This document shows, in pieces, positions 3,752 through 60,318 of a DNA stretch of 64,000 nucleotides; the first letter of the stretch is position 1, and each line of letters opens with the position of its first letter. Under the pieces are notes generated by a model. The model was given only the letters and a program-made list of their open reading frames with translations, had not been told where the DNA came from and did not search any database. Where the stretch lies: NCBI GenBank assembly GCA_048882485.1, contig JBHLRP010000002.1, forward strand, positions 102,527 to 166,526, given 5' to 3'. Source of the DNA: Candidatus Thorarchaeota archaeon. GTDB lineage: Archaea > Asgardarchaeota > Thorarchaeia > Thorarchaeales > Thorarchaeaceae. A program made the translations under genes and the position numbers.

Positions 3752-4708
3752 TCATTTGGCATTCCAGTAGTAGTAAACAGAATTGTGGATGGATTGGAAT
3801 CCAAATTGATTGTACAGATTCATTGCCGGAGTGTTCAAGATATCCATCTCCAAGGCGACTTTTTTGAACCCTTGTCGTCTTATGGAATCCATGCTTCTTG
3901 CAAGAAGATTGCGGGCAATGCCCTTGCCTCTATGCCTCGGATGGACCCCAATTGGCCCAATGTGCGCTTTCCCTTCCTCCTCTCTCACTACGATAAATCC
4001 AGTCACTCTATCATTATCCATCACGCACAGTGTGGCGTCGTCAACAAACTGTCTAGTTCTACTGAACCAATAATTGAAGGAATCTATTTGCTGGTCTTTT
4101 GTCAGAGAAAGAAAAAGACCATCTTTGCTGTCCAAGAATGAGTCGAAGAACGGTTCGAAGAGGTCTTCATTGCTGATCTCGGAAATTCGCTGGACTGTAA
4201 TGCCATCAGATTCCTCAAATTCAGGCATATTGCCAGTTATCGCGGCTTCCATATAGGTTTCTTCCGTTGCATATCGAAATCTTTCTTCCTTATACCAGCC
4301 CTCATATCTGTAGAGAAGCGGCCTGATTCTACTTGTGATTTTGTTGAACTGAACCTCCAGTCTCTCCTTCCCCATTCTCCTCGTTGCTTTCTTTGCCTCC
4401 CGAATCAGCTTCCTTGCCACAACTCCGTAGCTATCACTAGGCAAGACCTCAGGGTGCCACTCTCCAATGAAGACCATCCTCGCAAATCCTGTGTAGAGGC
4501 TGAGCCAACCCAACAAATCGTCTGGCCTATCGGACATGCAGAGAAGTACCTTCAGATTGTCATCGTCAGCAGCTGCATCAAGTGCCTCTATGAATTTCGC
4601 AACAGGAAGATCGGGGCTTCCTCTCTCTGAAGCCTGTCTTGCTTGGTATGCCACTTTTGCCAATGCTGCGGTATCAGCATCTCTCATTGAAGAGACCTTT
4701 ATGCGCAA
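3752..4708 (-). CDS. GNAT family acetyltransferase (tandem-domain type)
   Basis: C-terminal acetyl-CoA motif IGVHPRHRGKGIA and N..A.NLY..FGF; N-terminal half looks like a degenerate second GNAT fold. Confidence 0.8.
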   Translation of the reverse strand: MRIKVSSMRDADTAALAKVAYQARQASERGSPDLPVAKFIEALDAAADDDNLKVLLCMSDRPDDLLGWLSLYTGFARMVFIGEWHPEVLPSDSYGVVARKLIREAKKATRRMGKERLEVQFNKITSRIRPLLYRYEGWYKEERFRYATEETYMEAAITGNMPEFEESDGITVQRISEISNEDLFEPFFDSFLDSKDGLFLSLTKDQQIDSFNYWFSRTRQFVDDATLCVMDNDRVTGFIVVREEEGKAHIGPIGVHPRHRGKGIARNLLARSMDSIRRQGFKKVALEMDILNTPAMNLYNQFGFQSIHNSVYYYWNAK

Positions 4709-51782: not shown

Positions 51783-52496
51783 GTGAATCCACGTTTATCT
51801 CAATTTCTAGGTATCATTTTTCTCGTCATATGTCTTGCAATGTCCTATATCGTATACCAATCTACCGTTCAGGTTGGTGGAGATTTGGAGACGCTTATTA
51901 CGTCGGGCATTATCGCATGGGGAATCCTTGGTTTGCCTGAATTGGCAATCGGACTTTGGCTCATCGTAAAGGGAACTCGAGATGCACGTGTAGGTGACAT
52001 CTCTGGGAAGATTATTCCTCTTATACAGAAAGAAGGTCGAATTGGTGTGGCTGAAGCTGCAAAAGCGCTAGATGTAGGCCCCGCAGATGTCGCGGATGCC
52101 GTAGAGAAGCTAGCACGTAGACGTCTACCTCTCGTCTATCTAGATAGAGGGAAGAATGAGATTGTCAGTCCGTCTGCAGTATCCCTCGAAGAGAGTCTAC
52201 TGCACCTGTTGCATGCACAGAGGCGAATGACTTTCGACCAAATCTCGAACGTTGCAAATGCAACCGATGATCAAATTGTTGAAGCTCTTGAACAGCTATC
52301 CAGTAAGGGCAGATTTAGGGGCACTATCGATAAGAATTCTCGAGTGGTCTATACATCGGAAGCAGTTGAGCAGCTGCCTAAGGCTGTTACTGCATGTCCA
52401 AATTGCGGTGGGCGACTTCCCGCTCCTATACTTCCTGGAGAAGAGGAATACTGCCCATTCTGCGGACATTCCATTGTCAACCGCTTGGAAACCTAA
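51783..52496 (+). CDS. Membrane-anchored protein with tandem winged-helix (PCI-like) domains and C-terminal zinc ribbon
   Basis: 2 TM; two WH-like repeats, the second ending GRFRGTID...RVV; CPNCGG...CPFCG. Confidence 0.72.
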   Translation: MNPRLSQFLGIIFLVICLAMSYIVYQSTVQVGGDLETLITSGIIAWGILGLPELAIGLWLIVKGTRDARVGDISGKIIPLIQKEGRIGVAEAAKALDVGPADVADAVEKLARRRLPLVYLDRGKNEIVSPSAVSLEESLLHLLHAQRRMTFDQISNVANATDDQIVEALEQLSSKGRFRGTIDKNSRVVYTSEAVEQLPKAVTACPNCGGRLPAPILPGEEEYCPFCGHSIVNRLET

Positions 52497-52506
52497 TGCC
52501 GTGGTC

Positions 52507-53637
52507 TTATCTGTCCATATATGTCTCCCAGATGTCTAGAATATCACCATCAGAGGTTGCATAAAACCTACTCGAGAGATTTGCTGCAAGGCATGAGTGG
52601 TTCGGCAGGATACTCACACGGTCTCCAGGAACGAGGCCTTTCAATGGAGACCCCTTGGCTATCTTCACTTTCCCATGTTCTTGAGAGAGTCCTGTTATGT
52701 CAGTGTTTTCTGCAAAGTCCCCTTCATGGTAATCGGAAATGACTTTCCCAAATCCACAATTCGGGAAGAGGTGCGTAGGTCCGGGATCCAATGAGAGTGC
52801 TGTTGCACCTGCATCGAGAATGATACGGTTTGGATATGCGCTTATGACACTCGAAAGGACTGACAGTGCGCAGTCGTAGGGCTTGCAAACACCTAGTGCC
52901 ACTTGTGTATAGTCGAAGAAGACATAGCTACCTGGACGAACTTCTGTTATACCCTTCTTGATGGAGTCAGTCAACATCATGGTGGGAGTTGAGCCGATGC
53001 TGACAATCTTTGGTGTAAGTGCTTTACTCCTTTTTCTCAAATCTCTGGCGAACTTGAGCATGACATTCTGTTCTTCCTCAGCGATAGCTTTGATTTCATC
53101 AATCGACCTGGCATAATAGGAATGGCCGCTATGGGTGAGGATTCCAGCGAAGTTCAGTCCTCGCGCCTTGTGGATTTTCTCAGCAAGAGCTAGGGAGCCC
53201 TTCCTCGTGGGATCTACACCACTTCGATGATAGCTGCAATCCACTTTGAGAAGTACATCTAGATCCTCCTTGGCTTTCCTGAATCTCGTCCTTAGTTCTT
53301 TGAGTGCAGCAGGATGGTCGATAATCACCCTAAATTTGACCTTGATGGCAAGTTTAGCGACGGAATTCATCTTGTCGGGGGCAAGGGGAACTGCCAACGT
53401 TATGTCATCAAATCCATTCTCTGCAAAGAACATTGCTTCGCCCATTGTTGATACTGTGATGCCCGACGCTCCATAGTTCCTTTGAATCTCCGCAATCTCA
53501 ACACATTTGTGTGTCTTGACATGCGGTCTCAGAGCTACTTGATGTTCGCGTGCCTTATTTGCCATATTCTTGATGTTTTGGACGAGTCTGTCATAGTCAA
53601 CCAAGGTCGCAGGCGTTATCAGATCATCAACGCGCAT
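52507..53637 (-). CDS. PLP-dependent D-threonine aldolase / D-serine dehydratase (alanine racemase fold)
   Basis: TPA.LVD, LRPHVKTHK, GSTPT, EVRPGSYVFFD, LSQEHG, ILPNHSC. Confidence 0.88.
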   Translation of the reverse strand: MRVDDLITPATLVDYDRLVQNIKNMANKAREHQVALRPHVKTHKCVEIAEIQRNYGASGITVSTMGEAMFFAENGFDDITLAVPLAPDKMNSVAKLAIKVKFRVIIDHPAALKELRTRFRKAKEDLDVLLKVDCSYHRSGVDPTRKGSLALAEKIHKARGLNFAGILTHSGHSYYARSIDEIKAIAEEEQNVMLKFARDLRKRSKALTPKIVSIGSTPTMMLTDSIKKGITEVRPGSYVFFDYTQVALGVCKPYDCALSVLSSVISAYPNRIILDAGATALSLDPGPTHLFPNCGFGKVISDYHEGDFAENTDITGLSQEHGKVKIAKGSPLKGLVPGDRVSILPNHSCLAANLSSRFYATSDGDILDIWETYMDR

Positions 53638-53684
53638 GTCTTTTCCGAAGCAAAGGACCCTCAAAACCGTTGCTGTGCTGTCCC

Positions 53685-55106
53685 CTAAGTTATGCCATGT
53701 TGGTCGCCGCGGATTCTTCTTCTCAAACCAAGCCTTGCCTCATCTACCTTTGAAGCAATGCGACTCTTCTTGGGCCAATACTCCTTGATCTCCTCATATC
53801 CTTGGACATCCCAATACAATGGACAAGCTCCCAAGCAATAATCGAAATGAATACAGACCTTGCAGCCCTCAGCCGCAAAGTCTTTGCTCCTCCAGAATCT
53901 AGAGGCTCGATTGTTCCACACTCTCTCAAAGGATTCTTCTAGGAGATTGCCAACGGGGTCGCTGAAGCTCGAGCAAGGAAGAAGCCCGCCCTCGGGATCA
54001 ACGGACAGTAAGCCATCACATGCGGCACAACTCTTTGCGCCCAGGCCCAGCGCAATAGGATTGAAAATGCATACTGGTGTAGGAGCATACCATACGAATT
54101 GCACTCCCTTCTTGTTTGCTCTCTTCTTCACTCCCTTCACAATCTCGCCAATGTCTTCATACTTGACCTGCAACTCGTCTCTCAACTTCGCGGCAGTGCC
54201 AGTATAGATGACCATGTTCATGCTGAAATAACTCAGTTCCAATTCATCGGCGATGAAATTAACCAGTTCTTCAAGTTTGTCAACATTAGGTCGACAGATT
54301 GTTGTATTGCAGTGAGTATAGATGTTCGTTTCTTTGAGGTTCTTGATTCCTTGAACTGTTTGCTCAAAGGATCCAGGCGCGCCTGCAATTTGGTCATGCG
54401 TCTTTGCATCAGGACCCTCGATTGATACCTGGGCACTGTTTAAATCCGCCTGGACTAGTCGTTCAACGAATTCTGGGTTTGCACATCGTCGGCCATTCGT
54501 GATGAGATTAACACGGAGTCCCTTTTCTCGGGCATAAGCTATCAGCTCAAATATGTCCTCGCGTAGAGTTGGCTCACCTCCGGTGAAAGAAAGACTTGGA
54601 ACGTGGGCCTTGTCAACAATGGTGTCAATAATTCGCTTCACTTCGTCTGTGGTCATCTCTTTGGTTTCTCGATGCGGGGAGAATGCATAGCAGAATTGAC
54701 ATTCATTGTTACATCGATAAGTTAGTGCTATCTCGCTTAATACAGGATATTTGATATCTCCTTCCCCAAAGGGCACAATTCTGGCGGTCTTGTATGAGTA
54801 GATGTTCTGATTTCCCATTACCATGCTCCGTAGGTCATCAACAAAGGCGGCTAGATCATTGAGCACTTGTTGTTCATCAGCTTCAAAGTTATTCACAAAG
54901 TAGTCTCTAACCTCTTTTGCTGTTGCACCATCAAGCAGCTTACGTAACATTGCAGTCCCAGTTTCGTTGAGGTGCATGACCTTGTTAGGACGCAATATCA
55001 AGAGGTTATCTTGTGGTCTTACGAAGAAGTAATCCTTGACCTCATGCATGAAATTGGCTATCCAGCTGAGCTCCTCCAATGTGTAGTCATACTGTGGCTG
55101 ATGCAT
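53685..55106 (-). CDS. Radical SAM enzyme with N-terminal PqqD/RRE domain and C-terminal SPASM domain (peptide maturase type)
   Basis: RRE-like N-terminus (three short strands, HLNETG..ML..L, helices ending DL..FV..L); CNNECQFC; FTGGEP; SPASM C..C...VDPEG.LLPC....VGNL and CKVC-x5-C-x3-C. Confidence 0.9.
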   Translation of the reverse strand: MHQPQYDYTLEELSWIANFMHEVKDYFFVRPQDNLLILRPNKVMHLNETGTAMLRKLLDGATAKEVRDYFVNNFEADEQQVLNDLAAFVDDLRSMVMGNQNIYSYKTARIVPFGEGDIKYPVLSEIALTYRCNNECQFCYAFSPHRETKEMTTDEVKRIIDTIVDKAHVPSLSFTGGEPTLREDIFELIAYAREKGLRVNLITNGRRCANPEFVERLVQADLNSAQVSIEGPDAKTHDQIAGAPGSFEQTVQGIKNLKETNIYTHCNTTICRPNVDKLEELVNFIADELELSYFSMNMVIYTGTAAKLRDELQVKYEDIGEIVKGVKKRANKKGVQFVWYAPTPVCIFNPIALGLGAKSCAACDGLLSVDPEGGLLPCSSFSDPVGNLLEESFERVWNNRASRFWRSKDFAAEGCKVCIHFDYCLGACPLYWDVQGYEEIKEYWPKKSRIASKVDEARLGLRRRIRGDQHGIT

Positions 55107-55215
55107 CGTTCGTGAGGGCTTAGCTGGAGGTGTCTTAAGGATTCGCCTACAACCTGAAAGGCTTATCAGCCTCCATATACGAGTACAGGCAAGACACGAT
55201 GAAGGAGTGTGTCAT

Positions 55216-55608
55216 ATGAGTTCCGAGATAAAATTGCCATATGGAACAATCAGCAAGAAGAAGCTGATTATGCATTTCAGCGCCTTTGATATCGATTTGC
55301 CAGTGATTGCTGCTGGAATCAGAGAGAGGATGGATGTTCTGCGAGAGCTTGAGGTTGCTTTCGCAGGATTTGGAACTGAGATACCAGCAGAGATGACTGA
55401 GCAGACACCAGCCACGGTAAAGGCATTCTTTGAGTATGTGGGAAAGGGGACCGACGCTGATGTCATCCTCAAGCGCGTGTACCATCTCGTTTGGGGCGGC
55501 ATGATTATGGAGTTTCCAGATCTTGACGAATGGGCGGCAGCCAAGGCGGACCTATCGAATTTAACGATTGCACAAGCAGATGTACTGCGTGCGCAGCGTG
55601 GTGAATAA
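55216..55608 (+). CDS. Hypothetical protein (about 130 aa)
   Basis: Clean ORF, divergent from the radical SAM gene across about 100 bp; no recognised motif. Confidence 0.7.
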   Translation: MSSEIKLPYGTISKKKLIMHFSAFDIDLPVIAAGIRERMDVLRELEVAFAGFGTEIPAEMTEQTPATVKAFFEYVGKGTDADVILKRVYHLVWGGMIMEFPDLDEWAAAKADLSNLTIAQADVLRAQRGE

Positions 55609-55691
55609 TGGAGAACCCTTTGTGATGTGTTTAGTTGGAATTTCTAGCCAAAATGAATTGAATATGGGGACCGCTTGGAGTTGTTAATCAA

Positions 55692-57851
55692 TTGAAGCGC
55701 AACTTAACCCTGATGTTTACAATGGGTTTCATCCTTCTAGTCTTTGCTCCTGTATCCGTCAGTGGGACGACAATTAGCCAAAGCCCTGTTATCAACCTCG
55801 ATAGCGTTTTCGTGGATGCGGTAGTTCTACCAAATGGCCGAATAAACGTCACATATTGGATAACCATATCCGTAATTGAGAATTCCCTGGGCGGATTCGA
55901 TTTAGCGGGGATTCAAGAAACCACAATCTATGATTCCGATCGCGCGTACGCTGAGGTGGACGGAAACCGCTACAATCTGGTCGTTGGACAGCTCTCAAAT
56001 GGCTACGCTCTAGACTGGACTCCCAGGACTCAAGCTGGAGAAACAGTCACAGTAGTATTTGGGTATTTCAGTACAAACAGGGTTCTAGAGATGACAACTG
56101 GAACATTTACTCTTGAGGGCTCTGGTCTGCAAGTTACCGGTGATTTGGCTGTTTTCAACTGGGCTCCAGTACAGTGGAGTGTGCCTCTTGATTATGAGAA
56201 TGTGAGAGTAATTTATCCTATTGAAATGCAGGCTTCATGGATTACCGGGGAAGGTGGAATCACCTCAGAGGGAGCAGATTATGCGGGCTATGTTGTGGAT
56301 AGCCGTCAGAGGCTTGAAGACAACTTTGGCAGCTTCTTTCCCTTCGATGAGGAGAACCTTCTTGCCTATCCCTCGTCGGCTTCCGCTGACCCTCGATACT
56401 TCAGCGTTAGTCTAGGACATTCTAATTTGGGCTCCTATGACCACTTCCGTGTATTTCATTATACCAATTGGAGCTTCTATGCTCCGTATCTCGAACCGGG
56501 CGCCCTAGACTATAACACTCCGGAGAATTTCAATGCAGATGCGAACACGGAATTCTCAATTGGTGTGGATGTATTCAATATCGGAGACGCCCCACTCAAC
56601 GATGTCACAGTAACACTCTCTGTGCCAGACAATCTCACTTTGACTTCTGGCCAGGTCTCTACTTATATTGGAACACTCGATGGCGGAGAGAACTCTCATT
56701 TGACTTACCATTTCATCCCCGATAACTTGCCAGAGATTCTTCCCCTCACGTTTCAAATCTCATCATCCAGTCTTAATACAAGTGACTGGGTAACATTTAC
56801 AGTCAACATCTATGTGCGGGAAGTTATTCCTCCCTTGATACCTCCGAATCTCCTGATTTGGGGATCTGCTGGAATAGCGGCCATAGCTGTTGTTTCTTTT
56901 GGCTATCGTCGAATAATGGGTGGATATGGAGCAACATGGGAGGTTGATGAAACAACAAAGGTGTATCAGAGCCCGGAGATTGCCATCCAGACTTTAGGCA
57001 CACCAGGAACTGTTGCAGATCTTGATCCTGTTGAGAGCGCATTCTTTGTCAATACAAATCGCAAGAAACTGGTGTCAATGATTCTCATGTCCTGTGTGAA
57101 AAAAGGTGCAGTAAGGGTGATTTCAACGGACCCCTTACGCCTATCAGATACGGGCCTGAGGTTCGAGGACCCTACTTACTATGAACAGATGTTTGTCGCC
57201 TCTATTAGCAACAATGAGCTTGACCCCGACAGGATTGATGACATGCTGGAAGAACTAGCTGAGAAGGTGCAAGAGAAGTCTTGGGATGCGGACTTCGAGG
57301 CTACTAAGACCCATCATGAGGAGATGGTCGATGGGGCCTGGGAAGACCTGGAAAGTGATCCAACACTTGATGGGCGTGTTGATTACTATTTCAATCGGAG
57401 GTATCACGACACTTGGGCTTGGTATTGGTTCTACATGCATCCTCATCATAACCGAAGAATCAGCCAAGTGTTCACACCTCCAGGGGGGACAATCGCTCCT
57501 CCAAGGGTACCTGATTGGTTTGGTCAGATTGCTGAGGCTGCTGGCCATTCAATTGGCGAAGTTGGACGTGTGGTTGGAGATGTAGCTTCAACCACGGGCC
57601 AAATCATGACGAATGTAACAAACACCATTGGAGATGTCCTTTCGGGAGTTGGTAACATCATCCGAGAACCGCTGAAACCTATCTTGGAGGAGACCAGTCG
57701 TTGCGTGTCTCATGATGCCTGCCACTCTGCATGCGTTTCGCACGATGCATGTCATAGTGCCTGTCACAGCGCATGCCATAGTGCTTGTGTATGCCATAGC
57801 GCCTGTCATAGTGCATGCCACAGTGCATGTGTTTCTGGAGGATTTAGATAA
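55692..57851 (+). CDS. Single-pass membrane protein (DUF2207-like ectodomain + Ig-like domain) with C-terminal Cys-His-Ser-Ala repeat tail; candidate radical SAM substrate
   Basis: Signal peptide, beta-rich ectodomain, Ig-like segment (VFNIGDAPLNDVTVTLSVP), TM at about 56850-56905 followed by RR, about 310-aa C-terminal domain ending in the Cys/His repeats. Confidence 0.85.
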   Translation: MKRNLTLMFTMGFILLVFAPVSVSGTTISQSPVINLDSVFVDAVVLPNGRINVTYWITISVIENSLGGFDLAGIQETTIYDSDRAYAEVDGNRYNLVVGQLSNGYALDWTPRTQAGETVTVVFGYFSTNRVLEMTTGTFTLEGSGLQVTGDLAVFNWAPVQWSVPLDYENVRVIYPIEMQASWITGEGGITSEGADYAGYVVDSRQRLEDNFGSFFPFDEENLLAYPSSASADPRYFSVSLGHSNLGSYDHFRVFHYTNWSFYAPYLEPGALDYNTPENFNADANTEFSIGVDVFNIGDAPLNDVTVTLSVPDNLTLTSGQVSTYIGTLDGGENSHLTYHFIPDNLPEILPLTFQISSSSLNTSDWVTFTVNIYVREVIPPLIPPNLLIWGSAGIAAIAVVSFGYRRIMGGYGATWEVDETTKVYQSPEIAIQTLGTPGTVADLDPVESAFFVNTNRKKLVSMILMSCVKKGAVRVISTDPLRLSDTGLRFEDPTYYEQMFVASISNNELDPDRIDDMLEELAEKVQEKSWDADFEATKTHHEEMVDGAWEDLESDPTLDGRVDYYFNRRYHDTWAWYWFYMHPHHNRRISQVFTPPGGTIAPPRVPDWFGQIAEAAGHSIGEVGRVVGDVASTTGQIMTNVTNTIGDVLSGVGNIIREPLKPILEETSRCVSHDACHSACVSHDACHSACHSACHSACVCHSACHSACHSACVSGGFR
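57702..57848 (+). repeat. In-frame Cys-rich peptide repeat: 7x CHSA and 2x CVSHDA, ending CVSGGFR
   Basis: CVSHDA CHSA CVSHDA CHSA CHSA CHSA CV CHSA CHSA CHSA CVSGGFR; 11 Cys and 9 His in 49 aa. Confidence 0.95.
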
Positions 57852-58618
57852 TGGGAGAAACCATCAAGACGATATTTCATTTGAGCGATATCCACATTGG
57901 AGAACAAGGAGTGTCTTTAGGCGATTTCCGCGAAGTAATTGAGAGTATTGAGAAGCGTGCTCCGCATATGACCTCGCCTCTCATTCTTATCACGGGCGAT
58001 CTTACAGGGGAGGGACTTAGAGAGGAGTATGAAGCATTCTCTAATGTTGTATCTGGCATAGAAACTCCTCTCATAATCGTGCCTGGAAACCATGACGAGC
58101 GCAATTACGGTGCTGCACACTTCGAGGAGATGTTTGGAGAGCGTTTTAAGACCTACGAGGACGAAGCTATTGCGTTGTATGCAGCTGACAGTGCAGAACC
58201 AGACAATGATGCAGGGCATGTTGGTCGGACTAAGTATAATGAGATACATGACTTTCTCGGAGGGGCGAAAGAGAAGGTGCGCATATTCGCGTTACATCAT
58301 CACCTGATACCGGTCCCAAACACTGGGAGGGAACACAATGTTGTGGAGGATTCTGGTGCTGTCTTGGGACTTTTGAATCGAACGCAATGCTCGTTGGTCC
58401 TAAATGGTCACCGTCATGTCCCTTGGATGTGGAATCTGAATGATATGATTATATACACGACAGGTACCCTGCTCTCCCGGCGTGTTCGTGGAGCTACGAC
58501 TCAAGTCTATACGCTTATTGAGCTTACCAAGGCCGATGTGACATTTACCTTGGTTGAGAAGTCAGGTTCTGCGAGCCTATTCTCTCGTGCCGAGCTTCGT
58601 CCTGCTGTCCTAGGCTAA
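57851..58618 (+). CDS. Calcineurin-like metallophosphoesterase
   Basis: HLSDIH, TGDL, PGNHD, HHH, GHRH; start overlaps the upstream stop (TAATG). Confidence 0.9.
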   Translation: MGETIKTIFHLSDIHIGEQGVSLGDFREVIESIEKRAPHMTSPLILITGDLTGEGLREEYEAFSNVVSGIETPLIIVPGNHDERNYGAAHFEEMFGERFKTYEDEAIALYAADSAEPDNDAGHVGRTKYNEIHDFLGGAKEKVRIFALHHHLIPVPNTGREHNVVEDSGAVLGLLNRTQCSLVLNGHRHVPWMWNLNDMIIYTTGTLLSRRVRGATTQVYTLIELTKADVTFTLVEKSGSASLFSRAELRPAVLG

Positions 58619-58987: not shown

Positions 58988-59103
58988 GCTTCTACCCTCA
59001 TCATCATCTGAACAACTCCTCTAAAAGATGTTCTCATGAACAGATGGTCTGGCGCACTCCGGTACATTCTATAGCCCGTTGCATTTGAGTTTCCTTGATT
59101 CTA

Positions 59104-60318
59104 ATGGATGTTGGAAGAGAGTTCGTCCGGCTTTGTGGCGAGGTAGGAAATCTTTCAAAAAGCGTGACTGGTTTAAGCATTGTTGATGCCTATTATGGAC
59201 CGGATGAACTGGCACCAGACCGACAGGCAAAGGATCGCGAGCCAGAAATAATGATGCATGAGCTATCAGTTCTATCCGACAATATCAAGGATGAGATTGA
59301 ACAGCCGCTGCGCTCTAAGTATCTCACTACGGAAGTTCATTCGCTGCAATCTGTTGTCAGATGGATGGCAGGAGAGGAAATGTCCTATGCTGACATTGTG
59401 GAGAATGTCTTTGGTATCAAACCAACTAGATTCTCTGAGAAAGAAGTAGAAAAAGCAATGAAGAATGTTGAGGCTGCATTTTCAGACTGTCCTGGCAGTG
59501 ATACGAGAGAGCGTGTGGAGCAATTCAAACTTGATGGTCAGGTGCAAGGAGTGGAGGCAAAGAACTACATCGAAGGAGAATTGCAGCAGAGTGCAAAGGA
59601 TGTAGGGATGCTATTCCAGAAAAAAGTCTACGCTAGCATGGATGCCACTGTGATTGACAATGGCATTGAGCATAAGGCGGTGACAGACAAGCCCTGGGGA
59701 GGTTACAATTATTACCAAGGTGACTACAAATCAAAAAACGAGTTCAATGTTGACCGTCCATTTAGTAAACACGGACTAGCTGCTGTAATCTATCACGAAT
59801 ATGAGCATCATGTTTCAAATCTTTGGAGAGAAAAGGCGTATCGCGAAAACGATTTGACAGACCTCTCCATTGTTCCCCTTACTGGAAGATGCGTGATCTC
59901 TGAGGGAACTGCTGATACTGCGATGGACTTCCTTGAAGTTGGCGAAGGAACTGATGCGCTAAGAATGCGAGCTTTAACGAACCTATCTCGGATGTGCAGC
60001 ATGAACGCTGCACTAATGTTGAATCATAAGCGCGCATCTGATAATGAGGTTGTTGAATATCTGGTTGAACGGACATTCGGCAAGGAAGAGAGAATAAGAC
60101 CCTCCCTTGAATTTTCTCGACCCAAGACCAATGAAGGGAAACCAAATCTTTGGGCTCCCTACATCTTCAATTATCTCACAGGTAGAAAGGACTTTGTCTA
60201 TCCAACATTTCTCAAAGCCAAGGAAACTGACAAGCTTCCAGACTTCTTCAGAACAGTCTACCTCAATCCCTATTCAGGTTCAAGCAGAACTTGGAACGAA
60301 GCCTTCGATTGGCTTTAG
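59104..60318 (+). CDS. Putative gluzincin-type metallopeptidase (DUF885-like)
   Basis: HEYEHH followed about 30 aa later by ISEGTA; VDAYYGP N-terminal motif; YIFNY..G near the C-terminus. Confidence 0.65.
   Translation: MDVGREFVRLCGEVGNLSKSVTGLSIVDAYYGPDELAPDRQAKDREPEIMMHELSVLSDNIKDEIEQPLRSKYLTTEVHSLQSVVRWMAGEEMSYADIVENVFGIKPTRFSEKEVEKAMKNVEAAFSDCPGSDTRERVEQFKLDGQVQGVEAKNYIEGELQQSAKDVGMLFQKKVYASMDATVIDNGIEHKAVTDKPWGGYNYYQGDYKSKNEFNVDRPFSKHGLAAVIYHEYEHHVSNLWREKAYRENDLTDLSIVPLTGRCVISEGTADTAMDFLEVGEGTDALRMRALTNLSRMCSMNAALMLNHKRASDNEVVEYLVERTFGKEERIRPSLEFSRPKTNEGKPNLWAPYIFNYLTGRKDFVYPTFLKAKETDKLPDFFRTVYLNPYSGSSRTWNEAFDWL

Follow-up and report, generated by a model that had tools for sequence, protein, structure and literature searches.

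A putative protein-modification module in Asgard archaea and bacteria: an RRE-containing radical SAM/SPASM enzyme and a membrane protein with a Cys-His-Ser-Ala tail

Results

A radical SAM enzyme (R) carrying an N-terminal PqqD/RRE-like domain and a SPASM domain was found to be inherited together with a type-I membrane protein (T) which ends in a Cys-periodic repeat. The domain make-up of the two proteins, their topology, their co-inheritance and the selection exerted on the tail were established by the analyses reported here. In the absence of mass spectrometry and expression data, the tail is inferred, with good probability, to be the substrate of R.

The R/T locus and the enzyme R

In the window (the whole stretch of 64,000 nucleotides of a Candidatus Thorarchaeota contig that was analysed), the gene of R (473 aa; 53685..55106, minus strand; Pfam PqqD, Radical_SAM and SPASM matches, each above cut-off) diverges from three plus-strand genes. 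These code, in this order, for a small protein (133 aa; 55207..55608, probable start ATG at 55216), for T (719 aa; 55692..57851) and for a metallophosphoesterase (57851..58618; PF00149, E 4.5e-15), the start of the latter gene overlapping the T stop as TAATG. T was present at full length with its tail in 61 of the 85 family genomes. No free-standing Cys-rich ORF was found near R and T in the ORF list of the window, in agreement with the original prediction, which had seen no convincing precursor of that kind; the reverse-strand Cys-rich ORFs at 57588-57828 were ruled out as precursors, being merely antisense readings of the T tail.

R is composed of a PqqD/RRE-like peptide-recognition domain (aa 37-94; 54825..54998, minus strand; PF05402, 40.8 bits for a cut-off of 23.4), a radical SAM core with the CxxxCxxC motif (aa 128-285; 54252..54725, minus strand; PF04055, 101 bits, E 9e-29) and a SPASM domain with the auxiliary-cluster cysteines (aa 345-430; 53817..54074, minus strand; PF13186), the Pfam match of the latter covering aa 360-418 with 27.6 bits for a cut-off of 21.5. 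The PqqD/RRE domain, the CNNECQFC motif and the full SPASM cysteine set, all announced by the original prediction, were recovered in place by Pfam and by alignment. In 13 relatives, with identity down to 29%, C132, C136 and C139 of the CNNECQFC motif are invariant, as are the SPASM residues C360, C378, C415, C418, C424 and C428, and the spacing C415-x2-C-x5-C-x3-C428 is kept in all of them. With its cluster motif, its SPASM domain (the Cys-x2-Cys-x5-Cys-x3-Cys set and the upstream Cys/Gly-x4-Cys), its RRE and a Cys-rich genomic partner, R has the sequence and genomic features of the RRE-dependent radical SAM/SPASM maturase class. Its nearest solved relatives by sequence are the thioether synthase SkfB, PqqE and CteB, and hydropathy analysis revealed no hydrophobic signal.

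When R was searched against the NCBIfam equivalogs, no curated cut-off was reached. The highest scores were those of the non-thioether SPASM enzymes AhbD (155.7 bits, cut-off 500), NirJ2 (146.8 bits, cut-off 500), PqqE (125.6 bits, cut-off 381) and MftC (118.3 bits, cut-off 265). StsB (NF045574; 110.7 bits, cut-off 625), the ACGX-repeat system (TIGR04340; 94.5 bits, cut-off 400), PapB (NF047865; 85.9 bits, cut-off 340), the CrpC family (TIGR04463; 68.2 bits, cut-off 525) and the CXXX-repeat maturase (TIGR04115; 28.3 bits, cut-off 350) were not reached either, and the QhpD model was absent from the top NCBIfam matches. No model covering the R/T system was found in Pfam or NCBIfam. A grouping of R with the AhbC/D or NirJ-type cofactor enzymes would have refuted the original prediction; none was observed, R remaining below every curated cut-off of these families. 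Genes of the heme, PQQ or mycofactocin pathways were never neighbours of R, these being T, the bacterial third gene C, the component Z (both described below) or lineage-specific unknowns.

Architecture and fold of T

The N-terminus of T contains a hydrophobic signal or anchor (aa 5-23, hydropathy). A single transmembrane helix (aa 385-405; 56844..56906, plus strand; AF2 helix 385-409) is followed by YRR, and no hydrophobic segment was detected by hydropathy downstream of aa 405. The layout proposed originally (signal, ectodomain, one transmembrane helix and a 49-aa tail with 11 Cys) is borne out by hydropathy and by the AF2 model, which also favour the proposed cytoplasmic position of the tail over the extracellular alternative. 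According to these predictions, the tail and R both face the cytoplasm.

The extracellular part (aa ~30-262 and ~270-380; 55782..56843, plus strand) was modelled with AF2 pLDDT values of 83-95. Structural alignment of the model with VIA-align identified aa ~30-262 as a ribophorin-I/Ost1-like beta-sandwich, with yeast Ost1 at a Z-score of 16.3 (rmsd 3.0, 188 residues). On the membrane-proximal lumenal domain of Ost1/RPN1, this segment gave Z-scores of 14.4-16.3 (rmsd 3.0-3.3, 183-189 residues), and the next fold group followed at 12.4, about 2-4 units below. The second domain (aa ~270-380) is Ig/MG/TRAP-beta-like, with Z-scores of ~12 to MG domains and TRAP-beta. Pfam Ribophorin_I (PF04597) matched neither T nor any protein of the genome, a genome search which matched none of 14 control genomes either. 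Sharing a fold with Ost1 is not evidence of a shared function.

The juxtamembrane motif Y-x-x-P-E-I-x-I-x-T ... L-D-P-V-E-S-A-F-F (aa 425-452; 56964..57047, plus strand) emerged from the alignments as the sole segment of T, the tail aside, that is kept across archaeal, bacterial, type-1 and type-2 proteins (the two types are described below). Residues 410-435 are predicted by AF2 to be disordered. By inference only, and without binding data, this motif is a candidate docking site for the RRE. Prediction of a complex between R and T 596-719 gave no answer (score 0.00) and is evidence neither way; the construct did not include the juxtamembrane motif.

A T profile searched against 1.84 billion proteins retrieved 866 representatives at 50% clustering. 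Among the matches listed, a Cys-periodic tail terminates 62 of the 73 with at least 480 aa. In all cases, T is large, conserved and composed of several domains. The T of the window did not match DUF2207 (PF09972) or TIGR04222 at E 0.01 or better, and its bacterial orthologues remained sub-threshold (TIGR04222, 29 bits for a cut-off of 43; DUF2207, 18.2 for 24.4). A remote kinship with these families, whose layout is alike, is plausible without having been shown.

The Cys-His-Ser-Ala tail

The last 49 residues of T (aa 671-719; 57702..57848, plus strand), the presumed substrate or core, consist of 11 Cys, 9 His, 10 Ser, 9 Ala and others, in a (CHSA)n pattern. Of 21 Thorarchaeial loci, 17 have the identical tail and four a tail with a single-residue difference; the irregular units VSHDA and CVC are also kept. 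Between genera, the 52 terminal codons carry 27-34 synonymous differences, with zero amino-acid change in 7 of 9 pairs; the synonymous sites of the tail are saturated at this distance. Of the 27 columns that are invariant in a 48-sequence alignment of archaeal and bacterial T, 22 fall within the tail. Judged by these alignments, no other part of T is as constrained. Archaea and bacteria share the tail residue for residue, which speaks for a precise structure of a housekeeping type and not for an antibiotic.

An origin of the tail as a recent slippage microsatellite was dropped because each repeat unit uses different codons and TRF matched the units at only 64-85%. Overlapping CX3CH heme-c sites were also discarded: the tail faces the cytoplasm, neighbouring sites would have to share every Cys, and no His is present in the CACACA tails. 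One locus (L002) was uninformative, its contig ending in sequencing-adaptor sequence within the gene.

Type-2 sister system and companion genes

A sister (type-2) system was recognized in which T ends in CACACA...GGGR and the enzyme, 30-36% identical, is followed in the operon by a class I methyltransferase. Its co-occurrence is equally tight, each tail type tracks its own enzyme clade, and the RRE-region residues R30, D33, L36, L46 and N47 are conserved across both enzyme types. The presence of a methyltransferase agrees with chemical processing of the tail. What the CHSA, CACACA and hybrid tails have in common is Cys and Ala and not His. The original prediction had mentioned, as a mere possibility, Cys-Ala-rich tails with a Gly-Gly-x-Arg end beside similar bacterial enzymes; they do exist, as attested by locus L137, the profile matches and the Anaerolineae counts given below. 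In family f14, a related enzyme and a methyltransferase were found, T being absent from the surrounding 5 kb.

The small ORF and the metallophosphoesterase gene noted originally beside T are present; they proved to be Thorarchaeial extras and not core parts of the system. The small protein, 71-97% identical and syntenic in every Thorarchaeial locus covering the position, is a companion specific to Thorarchaeia. It has no Pfam or NCBIfam match, an Atlas search gave nothing usable, and a profile comparison did not reveal any homology with the bacterial third gene C (probability 5%). AF2 predicted an alpha/beta sandwich, one of five models being confident, and the structure search returned no clear match (best Z-score 7.7, weak chaperone-like rows only). 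The metallophosphoesterase is a lineage-specific neighbour: roughly every second Thorarchaeial locus has it next to T, the other lineages never; its membership in the system is not shown.

Comparison of the loci indicates that the module also includes a Zn-ribbon membrane protein, absent from the original prediction. This component Z (237 aa; 51783..52496, plus strand) contains two transmembrane segments, winged-helix domains and a Zn ribbon. It aligns with the ~165-aa protein ending the bacterial T-R-C-Z operon (hhalign probability 97.1%, E 6e-11) and shows conserved synteny with R in 12 of the 16 Thorarchaeial loci extracted from contigs. Third genes vary between lineages: the C profile had no match in the genome of the window (90.5% complete), and no similarity to C was detected for those of other Asgard lineages (L023, L026).

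Co-inheritance of R and T

In the Thorarchaeial family of the window, R and T occurred together in 57 genomes, T alone in 4, R alone in 5 and neither in 16. The nine genomes with a single partner were all fragmentary, and 7 of the 16 genomes devoid of both are at least 91% complete. A class-wide sample of 201 Anaerolineae genomes contained type-1 R and T together in 30 cases, T only in 3, R only in 4 and neither in 164; for type 2, both were present in 26 genomes, T only in none and R only in 2. The presence and absence of the two genes co-vary in Thorarchaeia and in Anaerolineae, as expected from the association proposed originally. T is found in about 70% of the genomes of one Thorarchaeial family and, for each type, in about 15% of the sampled Anaerolineae. 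The neighbourhoods of homologs, in which the frequent lack of a Cys-tailed membrane protein would have spoken against the proposal, led to the same result: for the best 80 R relatives among 185,579 species, a tailed T was found in the fetched locus in 70 cases and elsewhere in the genome in 5, the 5 others lying at a contig end. On the strength of the Thorarchaeial and Anaerolineae co-occurrence, of this 80-locus survey and of the retention of the tail despite saturated synonymous sites, the R-T pairing is not due to chance.

The pair was detected in three archaeal lineages and in seven or more bacterial phyla; with bacteria and Thermoproteota among its carriers, the system is not Asgard-specific. 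In Thorarchaeia, R diverges from the small ORF and T; other Asgard families present the order T-x-R or T-R-x, locus L025 has overlapping R-T, and bacteria and Thermoproteota possess T-R-C-Z operons. In Asgard family f23, T and R stand on separate contigs. As more than 10 kb around the pair are syntenic in Thorarchaeia, unrelated genes included, the adjacency of R and T could be regarded as a by-product of conserved gene order devoid of any functional link. The occurrence of the pair in four arrangements over these phyla and lineages, and the joint gain and loss of R and T within genera, already contradict this reading at the level of comparative data, and virtually nothing is left in its favour.

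Discussion

We propose that R and T form the core of a two-gene protein-modification module. T would be a type-I membrane protein, exposing a ribophorin-I/DUF2207-like part to the exterior, crossing the membrane by one helix and carrying, on the cytoplasmic side, a winged-helix-like domain followed by a disordered stretch and the (CHSA)n tail. Cytoplasmic R would bind T via its N-terminal RRE, the likely docking point being the conserved juxtamembrane motif or the amphipathic stretch preceding the tail, and would use a 5'-deoxyadenosyl radical and two SPASM clusters on the repeated Cys units. By analogy with ranthipeptides, sactipeptides and CrpA, each unit would most likely receive one thioether ring, in which the Cys sulfur is bonded to a carbon atom of a neighbour 1-3 residues distant. 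T is inferred to keep its modified tail, which would be rigid, studded with His and probably able to bind metals. Taken as a whole, the explanation in which R installs thioether rings on a tail retained by T has, in our estimate, an even chance of being correct; thioether formation considered by itself is inferred, the modification not having been shown, and overall could go either way. Against this explanation, the conserved-core pattern resembles that of cofactor precursors or of a metal site: RiPP cores usually vary while leaders stay conserved, and the T tail shows the reverse. A tail of 11 Cys and 9 His would moreover bind metals unmodified, and R reaches no curated thioether-synthase model (PapB, StsB, TIGR04463, TIGR04115). 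Also counting against the explanation are families f23, with its separate contigs for T and R, and f14, with no nearby T, as well as the variation of the third genes.

That R modifies the tail by another chemistry is unlikely without being negligible. The candidates are a periodic L-to-D epimerisation, a Cys oxidation to formylglycine or dehydro-residues, and His-centred C-C or C-S crosslinks of the three-residue cyclophane type on H-S-A. Period-4 and period-2 tails would suit a regular epimerisation; to our knowledge, the known proteusin epimerases are devoid of a full SPASM domain. All nine tail His stand in H-x-A-C, which is also compatible with a non-thioether reaction, and R belongs to no curated thioether family, its top NCBIfam scores being those of non-thioether SPASM enzymes. 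However, His is not common to the different tail types, so that a His-centred chemistry cannot be their shared reaction, and the characterised RRE-SPASM enzymes with Cys-periodic substrates make thioethers, as generally known (see also PMC13692751).

The two remaining alternatives concern the fate and the nature of the tail. It could be cut off after modification and released as a RiPP or a peptide-derived cofactor, T being then a mere membrane-bound scaffold. An extremely conserved core characterises precursors of cofactors, PqqA and MftA for example, and the tail would follow the same logic as in PQQ and mycofactocin. Release would also agree with one Thorarchaeial MAG, in which an in-frame TAG stands 69 codons upstream of the T stop with the later frame still conserved, and with an InhA-like/MA-clan peptidase encoded downstream in 21 of 80 loci. 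Yet this peptidase is of a secreted type and missing from about three quarters of the loci, the R/T loci compared have neither a protease nor an exporter in common across lineages, and a separate tail peptide was dropped as the norm because the in-frame stop occurs in 1 of about 62 genomes. The extracellular and cytoplasmic domains of T are themselves under selection, which is unexpected for a disposable scaffold, and release is held to be quite improbable. It is also very doubtful that the tail is a metal- or Fe-S-binding appendage and no substrate, R having a different target, such as a lipid, a small molecule or some other stretch of protein. In support of such a role, 11 Cys and 9 His in 49 residues are ideal soft-metal ligands, and R has a distant match to the lipid-modifying GDGT/MAS enzyme 7tol (E 2.8e-15). 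Low-complexity C-terminal tails are known in TIGR04222/DUF2207 membrane proteins, related to T by sub-threshold matches only, and crp gene expression goes up on pyrite, suggesting a metal role (PMC13692751). Appendages of this kind normally drift in length and order, whereas the T tail is fixed to the residue across genera; furthermore, the tail types follow their own enzyme clades, R has a peptide-binding RRE, and no other candidate substrate is conserved across the lineages.

In a more far-reaching reading, R would turn the invariant Cys-His tail into a polycyclic, His-studded structure retained by T and serving as a peptide-derived metal or redox cofactor, with a sensing, metal-storing or electron-conducting task at the inner membrane face. 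This remains a speculative possibility. If true, Asgard archaea and many anaerobic bacteria would share a new class of functional group, built post-translationally by two sister chemistries, the CHSA type and the CACACA type with methylation.

No paper on the R/T system was found in the literature, and nothing relevant was obtained on the tail strings, on DUF2207 with radical SAM or on Asgard radical SAM RiPPs. The original statement that no characterised example is known holds for the system itself; it no longer holds for analogues, CrpC/CrpA being now described on a large protein. Very probably, R acts on a whole protein by modifying its tail, in a manner not described so far; the chemistry is inferred and not shown. 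Radical-SAM 'RiPP' enzymes have been mined almost only beside short peptides, and R/T offers a widespread case in which a large integral membrane protein carries what looks like the core peptide at its C-terminal end. The RiPP and radical SAM field gains a defined, testable enzyme-substrate pair and a second type with a methyltransferase, the DUF2207/TIGR04222-like unknown group gains a function-linked feature, and an Asgard protein with a ribophorin-I-like ectodomain is seen to belong to a prokaryote-wide module.

Comparison with known systems

T resembles ribophorin I/Ost1 by its lumenal or extracellular beta-sandwiches, its single transmembrane helix and its cytosolic helical domain; it differs by the lack of a sequence-level Pfam match, by OST genes not being adjacent and by a family as common in bacteria as in Asgard archaea. 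With the DUF2207/TIGR04222 proteins, whose function is unknown, it shares a signal, an extracellular beta-rich N-domain, a transmembrane segment, a cytoplasmic part and a low-complexity C-terminal tail, but its own tail is fixed, Cys-periodic and coupled to a radical SAM enzyme. The CXXX-repeat (TIGR04115) and ACGX-repeat (TIGR04340) systems, themselves uncharacterised, also associate a fixed short Cys period with a radical SAM/SPASM enzyme; unlike T, their substrates are short free-standing peptides. PapB, CteB/SCIFF, SkfB and AlbA have the same RRE-radical SAM-SPASM architecture as R. The tail unit CVSHD is a C-x3-D, a motif which PapB reportedly crosslinks. Ranthipeptide and sactipeptide maturases act on short leader-core substrates, later cleaved and exported, whereas R/T has no conserved leader peptidase or exporter.

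The known enzyme QhpD, also cited in PMC13692751, is a SPASM radical SAM protein which crosslinks Cys to other residues of a subunit that retains the modification for its function; retention is also proposed for T. This subunit, QhpC (quinohemoprotein amine dehydrogenase gamma subunit), is unlike T in being small and periplasmic, with Cys-Asp/Glu thioether links and a quinone cofactor, and no amine dehydrogenase genes were found near the R/T pair.

The nearest characterised case is CrpC/CrpA, which belongs to a different enzyme family. In Methanococcus voltae, the RRE-radical SAM-SPASM enzyme CrpC (TIGR04463) installs ranthionine thioethers, in C-x-x-x-type motifs, on CrpA, a soluble, Cys-rich protein of 28.8 kDa with a leader-like N-terminus of 47 aa and 17-residue repeats containing C-x-x-Q/D (Dieter et al. 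2026, PMC13692751). In both systems, the gene of an RRE, radical SAM and SPASM enzyme neighbours that of a large protein whose C-terminal region is repetitive and rich in Cys, and thioethers, demonstrated for CrpA, would be carried by a protein and not by a short peptide. The Cys precedes its acceptor within about four residues, and a metal-related role is suspected. In contrast to CrpA, T is a type-I membrane protein of ~600-900 aa with a period of 4 or 2 residues at the extreme C-terminus, so that any recognition site must be internal. R/T is also spread much more widely than CrpC/CrpA, through Asgard archaea, Thermoproteota and many bacterial phyla.

Domain architecture of R

The gene located at 53685-55106 (- strand) codes for R, a protein of 473 aa without signal peptide. 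PqqD (aa 37-94), Radical_SAM (aa 128-285) and SPASM (aa 360-418) domains were each detected by Pfam above their own gathering score. Neither the CNNECQFC motif nor the SPASM cysteines vary among 13 relatives, with identity down to 29%. R is built like the enzymes that use an RRE to bind their peptide and radical chemistry to modify it. In the NCBIfam search, R remained below every equivalog cut-off (AhbD, 155.7 vs 500; NirJ2, 146.8 vs 500; PqqE, 125.6 vs 381; MftC, 118.3 vs 265; PapB, 85.9 vs 340), the top scores being generic SPASM matches. It is neither a member of TIGR04463 (68.2 vs 525 bits) nor a CXXX-repeat maturase (28.3 vs 350), and it falls outside all the other curated rSAM families of this database.

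Topology and predicted structure of T

T (55692-57851, + strand; 719 aa) is encoded divergently from R. Its hydrophobic N-terminus is a signal or an anchor, and one more hydrophobic span (aa 385-405) is followed by YRR. No hydrophobic segment was found C-terminal to this span, so the last 310 residues are assigned to the cytoplasm, on the same side as R. This is in agreement with the original prediction of a tail facing the cytoplasm; the features it had described for both proteins (coordinates, PqqD/RRE-like domain, CNNECQFC, SPASM cysteines, 11 Cys in the tail) were confirmed in every detail.

In the AF2 model of T (mean pLDDT 72.8; below 50 in the tail), two beta domains lie outside the cell, followed by a TM helix and, in the cytoplasm, by a domain of helical and winged-helix-like character. 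The first beta domain (residues 30-262) can be superposed on the membrane-proximal lumenal domain found in yeast Ost1 and in human ribophorin I (Z 14.4-16.3, rmsd 3.0-3.3 over 183-189 residues), the next fold group being the M1 aminopeptidase N-domains (Z 12.4), and residues 270-380 are similar to MG/Ig domains and TRAP-beta (Z about 12). Residues 30-380 correspond to 55782-56843 of the window. The whole protein repeats the plan of ribophorin I: beta-sandwiches, then a single TM, then a helical domain in the cytosol. The T family is equally bacterial. No sequence-level match to Pfam Ribophorin_I was obtained, and the likeness is taken as a fold resemblance, without functional claim. T matched no curated family; bacterial T proteins gave sub-threshold matches to DUF2207 and TIGR04222. 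Outside the tail, conservation of T across both types of the system is highest in a juxtamembrane motif, Y-x-x-P-x-I-x-I-E-T ... L-D-P-x-E-A-A-F, whose first part is disordered according to AF2 and which is followed by the winged-helix-like fold. It is a candidate docking site for the RRE by inference only.

Conservation of the Cys-periodic tail

The final 49 residues of T contain 11 Cys, 9 His, 10 Ser and 9 Ala; CVSHDA and CHSA units flank a central C-V-C, and VSGGFR forms the terminus. Whole T proteins are about 63-95% identical across 21 Thorarchaeial loci from at least 10 genera. Of these loci, 17 share the same last 52 residues and the remaining four differ by one residue, irregular units being kept as well. 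Over these 52 codons, 27-34 synonymous positions differ, so that synonymous sites are saturated, and no amino-acid change occurs in seven of nine comparisons. The tail is under very strong selection. A slippage repeat was considered as its origin and rejected.

When 48 archaeal and bacterial T proteins (23-31% identical overall) were aligned, 22 of the 27 invariant columns fell in the tail. The T profile matched 866 representatives among 1.84 billion proteins, 173 of them at E 1e-30 or better. Among the matches listed, 62 of the 73 with at least 480 aa end in a Cys-periodic tail, which makes the tail the defining feature of the family; most of the others seem to be incomplete or have one or two CHSA units at their end.

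Two irregular T genes were observed. In a Thorarchaeota MAG (GCA_048882945.1, locus L001), an in-frame TAG replaces a TCG Ser codon at 4371-4373, 69 codons before the end of T, and the downstream frame, including the whole tail, is still conserved at the protein level. The same single TAG was recorded in one genome (G358) of the phylum search. Possible explanations are an error in the sequence, a nonsense mutation that arose recently, read-through or a separately made tail. In the other case, a metagenome contig (L002) terminates in a Nextera adaptor at 2490-2544, read as ...LSLIHI within the T gene; the C-terminus of the deposited 661-aa protein is thus an assembly artefact.

Pairing of T and R across genomes

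The R alignment was used to scan 185,579 species, each represented by a single genome, and the best 80 loci were retained. They come from archaea (Thorarchaeota/Promethearchaeota, Thermoproteota/Nitrososphaerota) and bacteria (Chloroflexota, mostly Anaerolineae; Armatimonadota; Spirochaetota, including Leptospirales; Thermoanaerobaculia; Myxococcota; Caldisericales; Sumerlaeota). The co-occurrence of the two genes, put forward as a check with the original prediction, was borne out: a 540-940-aa protein with a (CHSA)n tail is present in 70 of these 80 loci, usually directly upstream on the same strand, and of the ten others five are cut by contig ends and five belong to genomes carrying a full-length tailed T elsewhere. 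The T-R pair is conserved far beyond Asgard archaea. Gene order varies, from divergent R / small ORF-T in Thorarchaeia to T-x-R or T-R-x in other Asgard families, overlapping R-T in one locus (L025) and T-R-C-Z in bacteria and Thermoproteota.

Within the family of the window, 57 genomes carry both genes, 4 T alone, 5 R alone and 16 neither; all single-gene cases are incomplete genomes or contig-end matches, and 7 of the 16 lacking both are at least 91% complete. The distribution splits even within genera (1/7 in g9, 1/3 in g6), each time with both genes in the same genome. In an independent sample of 201 Anaerolineae-class genomes, type 1, i.e. the (CHSA)n tail with an R-type enzyme, is represented by both genes in 30, T only in 3, R only in 4 (all on short contigs) and neither in 164. 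No statistic is given because related genomes are not independent. A distribution so patchy and yet matching in two domains is hard to explain without a functional link.

The pair can also be unlinked: in Asgard family f14 (L123, L124), no tailed protein lies within about 5 kb of a related rSAM and methyltransferase pair, and in family f23 T and the enzyme are on separate contigs.

A sister system with a methyltransferase

More distant T proteins bear tails like CACACACAGCACACAGGGR; the next genes encode an enzyme 30-36% identical to R and, after it, a class I methyltransferase. In this type-2 operon, the order is a small TM/Zn-ribbon protein (often present), T with a CACACA...GGGR tail, the rSAM/SPASM enzyme, whose gene often overlaps the tail end, and the SAM methyltransferase (Methyltransf_11). 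It occurs in other Asgard families (L030, L031, L120-L122, L125-L127) and in Anaerolineae (L137), in a genome also carrying type 1. Bacterial Cys-Ala-rich tails near similar enzymes, which had been suggested, were thus found, in L137 and in 26 Anaerolineae genomes with a type-2 T; in the sample of 201, all 26 possess the type-2 enzyme, and two genomes have the enzyme only. Hybrid tails (CHSA units, then CACACAGGGW) also exist. The tail types have in common a Cys beside Ala at a fixed short period.

Neighbouring genes

Bacterial C (~390-420 aa, coiled-coil-like) was not found in the genome of the window, and bacterial Z is a protein of ~165 aa with 2 TM, a winged helix and a Zn ribbon. The product of 51783-52496 (+ strand; 2 TM, winged helices, Zn ribbon) is homologous to Z over its last ~80 residues (hhalign probability 97.1%, E 6e-11). 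Since 12 of 16 Thorarchaeial loci also have such a gene close to R, it is counted in the module; the homology to Z makes it more likely a component of the module than a UFMylation-type adaptor, as a DDRGK/PCI-like reading would have it. An Ala_racemase_N and D-Ser-dehydratase-like gene (52507-53664) separates R from Z in most Thorarchaeial loci, not in all: it is missing in L048, where Z directly adjoins R. This gene and the metallophosphoesterase (57851-58618, + strand), whose start overlaps the T stop, are neighbours in Thorarchaeia only, where synteny extends over more than 10 kb anyway; they are not counted as shown parts. The small ORF at 55207-55608 (+ strand) encodes a highly conserved 133-aa protein found in Thorarchaeia only (71-97% identity). 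It falls in no Pfam or NCBIfam family, resembles no known fold clearly and has no link to C.

Two possible proteases were noticed. A 407-aa protein (59095-60318) with a HEYEHH motif and no Pfam match is a possible metalloprotease; in 9 of 16 Thorarchaeial loci it occurs in synteny downstream of T, and the L001 protein is 47% identical. In 21 bacterial loci among the best 80 (including L056:3186-4220), the T-R-C-Z operon is followed by an InhA-like MAM / Peptidase_MA_2 protein, which may be a protease for processing or just a neighbour without relation to the system.

Proposed role of R

The only partner of R conserved across lineages is T, most constrained in its cytoplasmic Cys-periodic tail. 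Together with the RRE-rSAM architecture and the type-2 methyltransferase, this makes post-translational modification of the tail by R the simplest reading, and the tail is probably the substrate, the chemistry being inferred. A tail rich in Cys and His could also be purely metal-binding, with R acting elsewhere; we consider this improbable.

As to the product, analogy with characterised RRE-SPASM enzymes acting on Cys-periodic substrates makes thioether rings the most likely outcome, whether closed inside a four-residue unit or between two of them. The modified tail would stay on T as a rigid, His-rich, probably metal-binding element. For such thioethers on a retained tail, the chances seem about even. 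Another chemistry on the tail is rather unlikely. Release of the tail as a peptide or a cofactor, for which the InhA-like protein might provide a protease if it is not a mere neighbour, receives little credit from us.

Comparison with known systems

No paper on the tail or on the T-R pair was found in our literature search. What is new here is an integral membrane protein as presumed substrate, a presumed core at the C-terminus with an inferred internal recognition site, a tail conserved to the residue level across domains, the existence of two sister types, and accessory components (Z and C, or the methyltransferase). The idea that a large Cys-rich protein can be crosslinked by an rSAM/SPASM enzyme is already known since QhpD and, more directly, CrpC (2026). 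CrpC introduces ranthionine links into the 28.8-kDa CrpA, with Cys up to about three residues before the acceptor, and the CrpC/CrpA couple is the closest analogy for an action of R on the T tail (PMC13692751).
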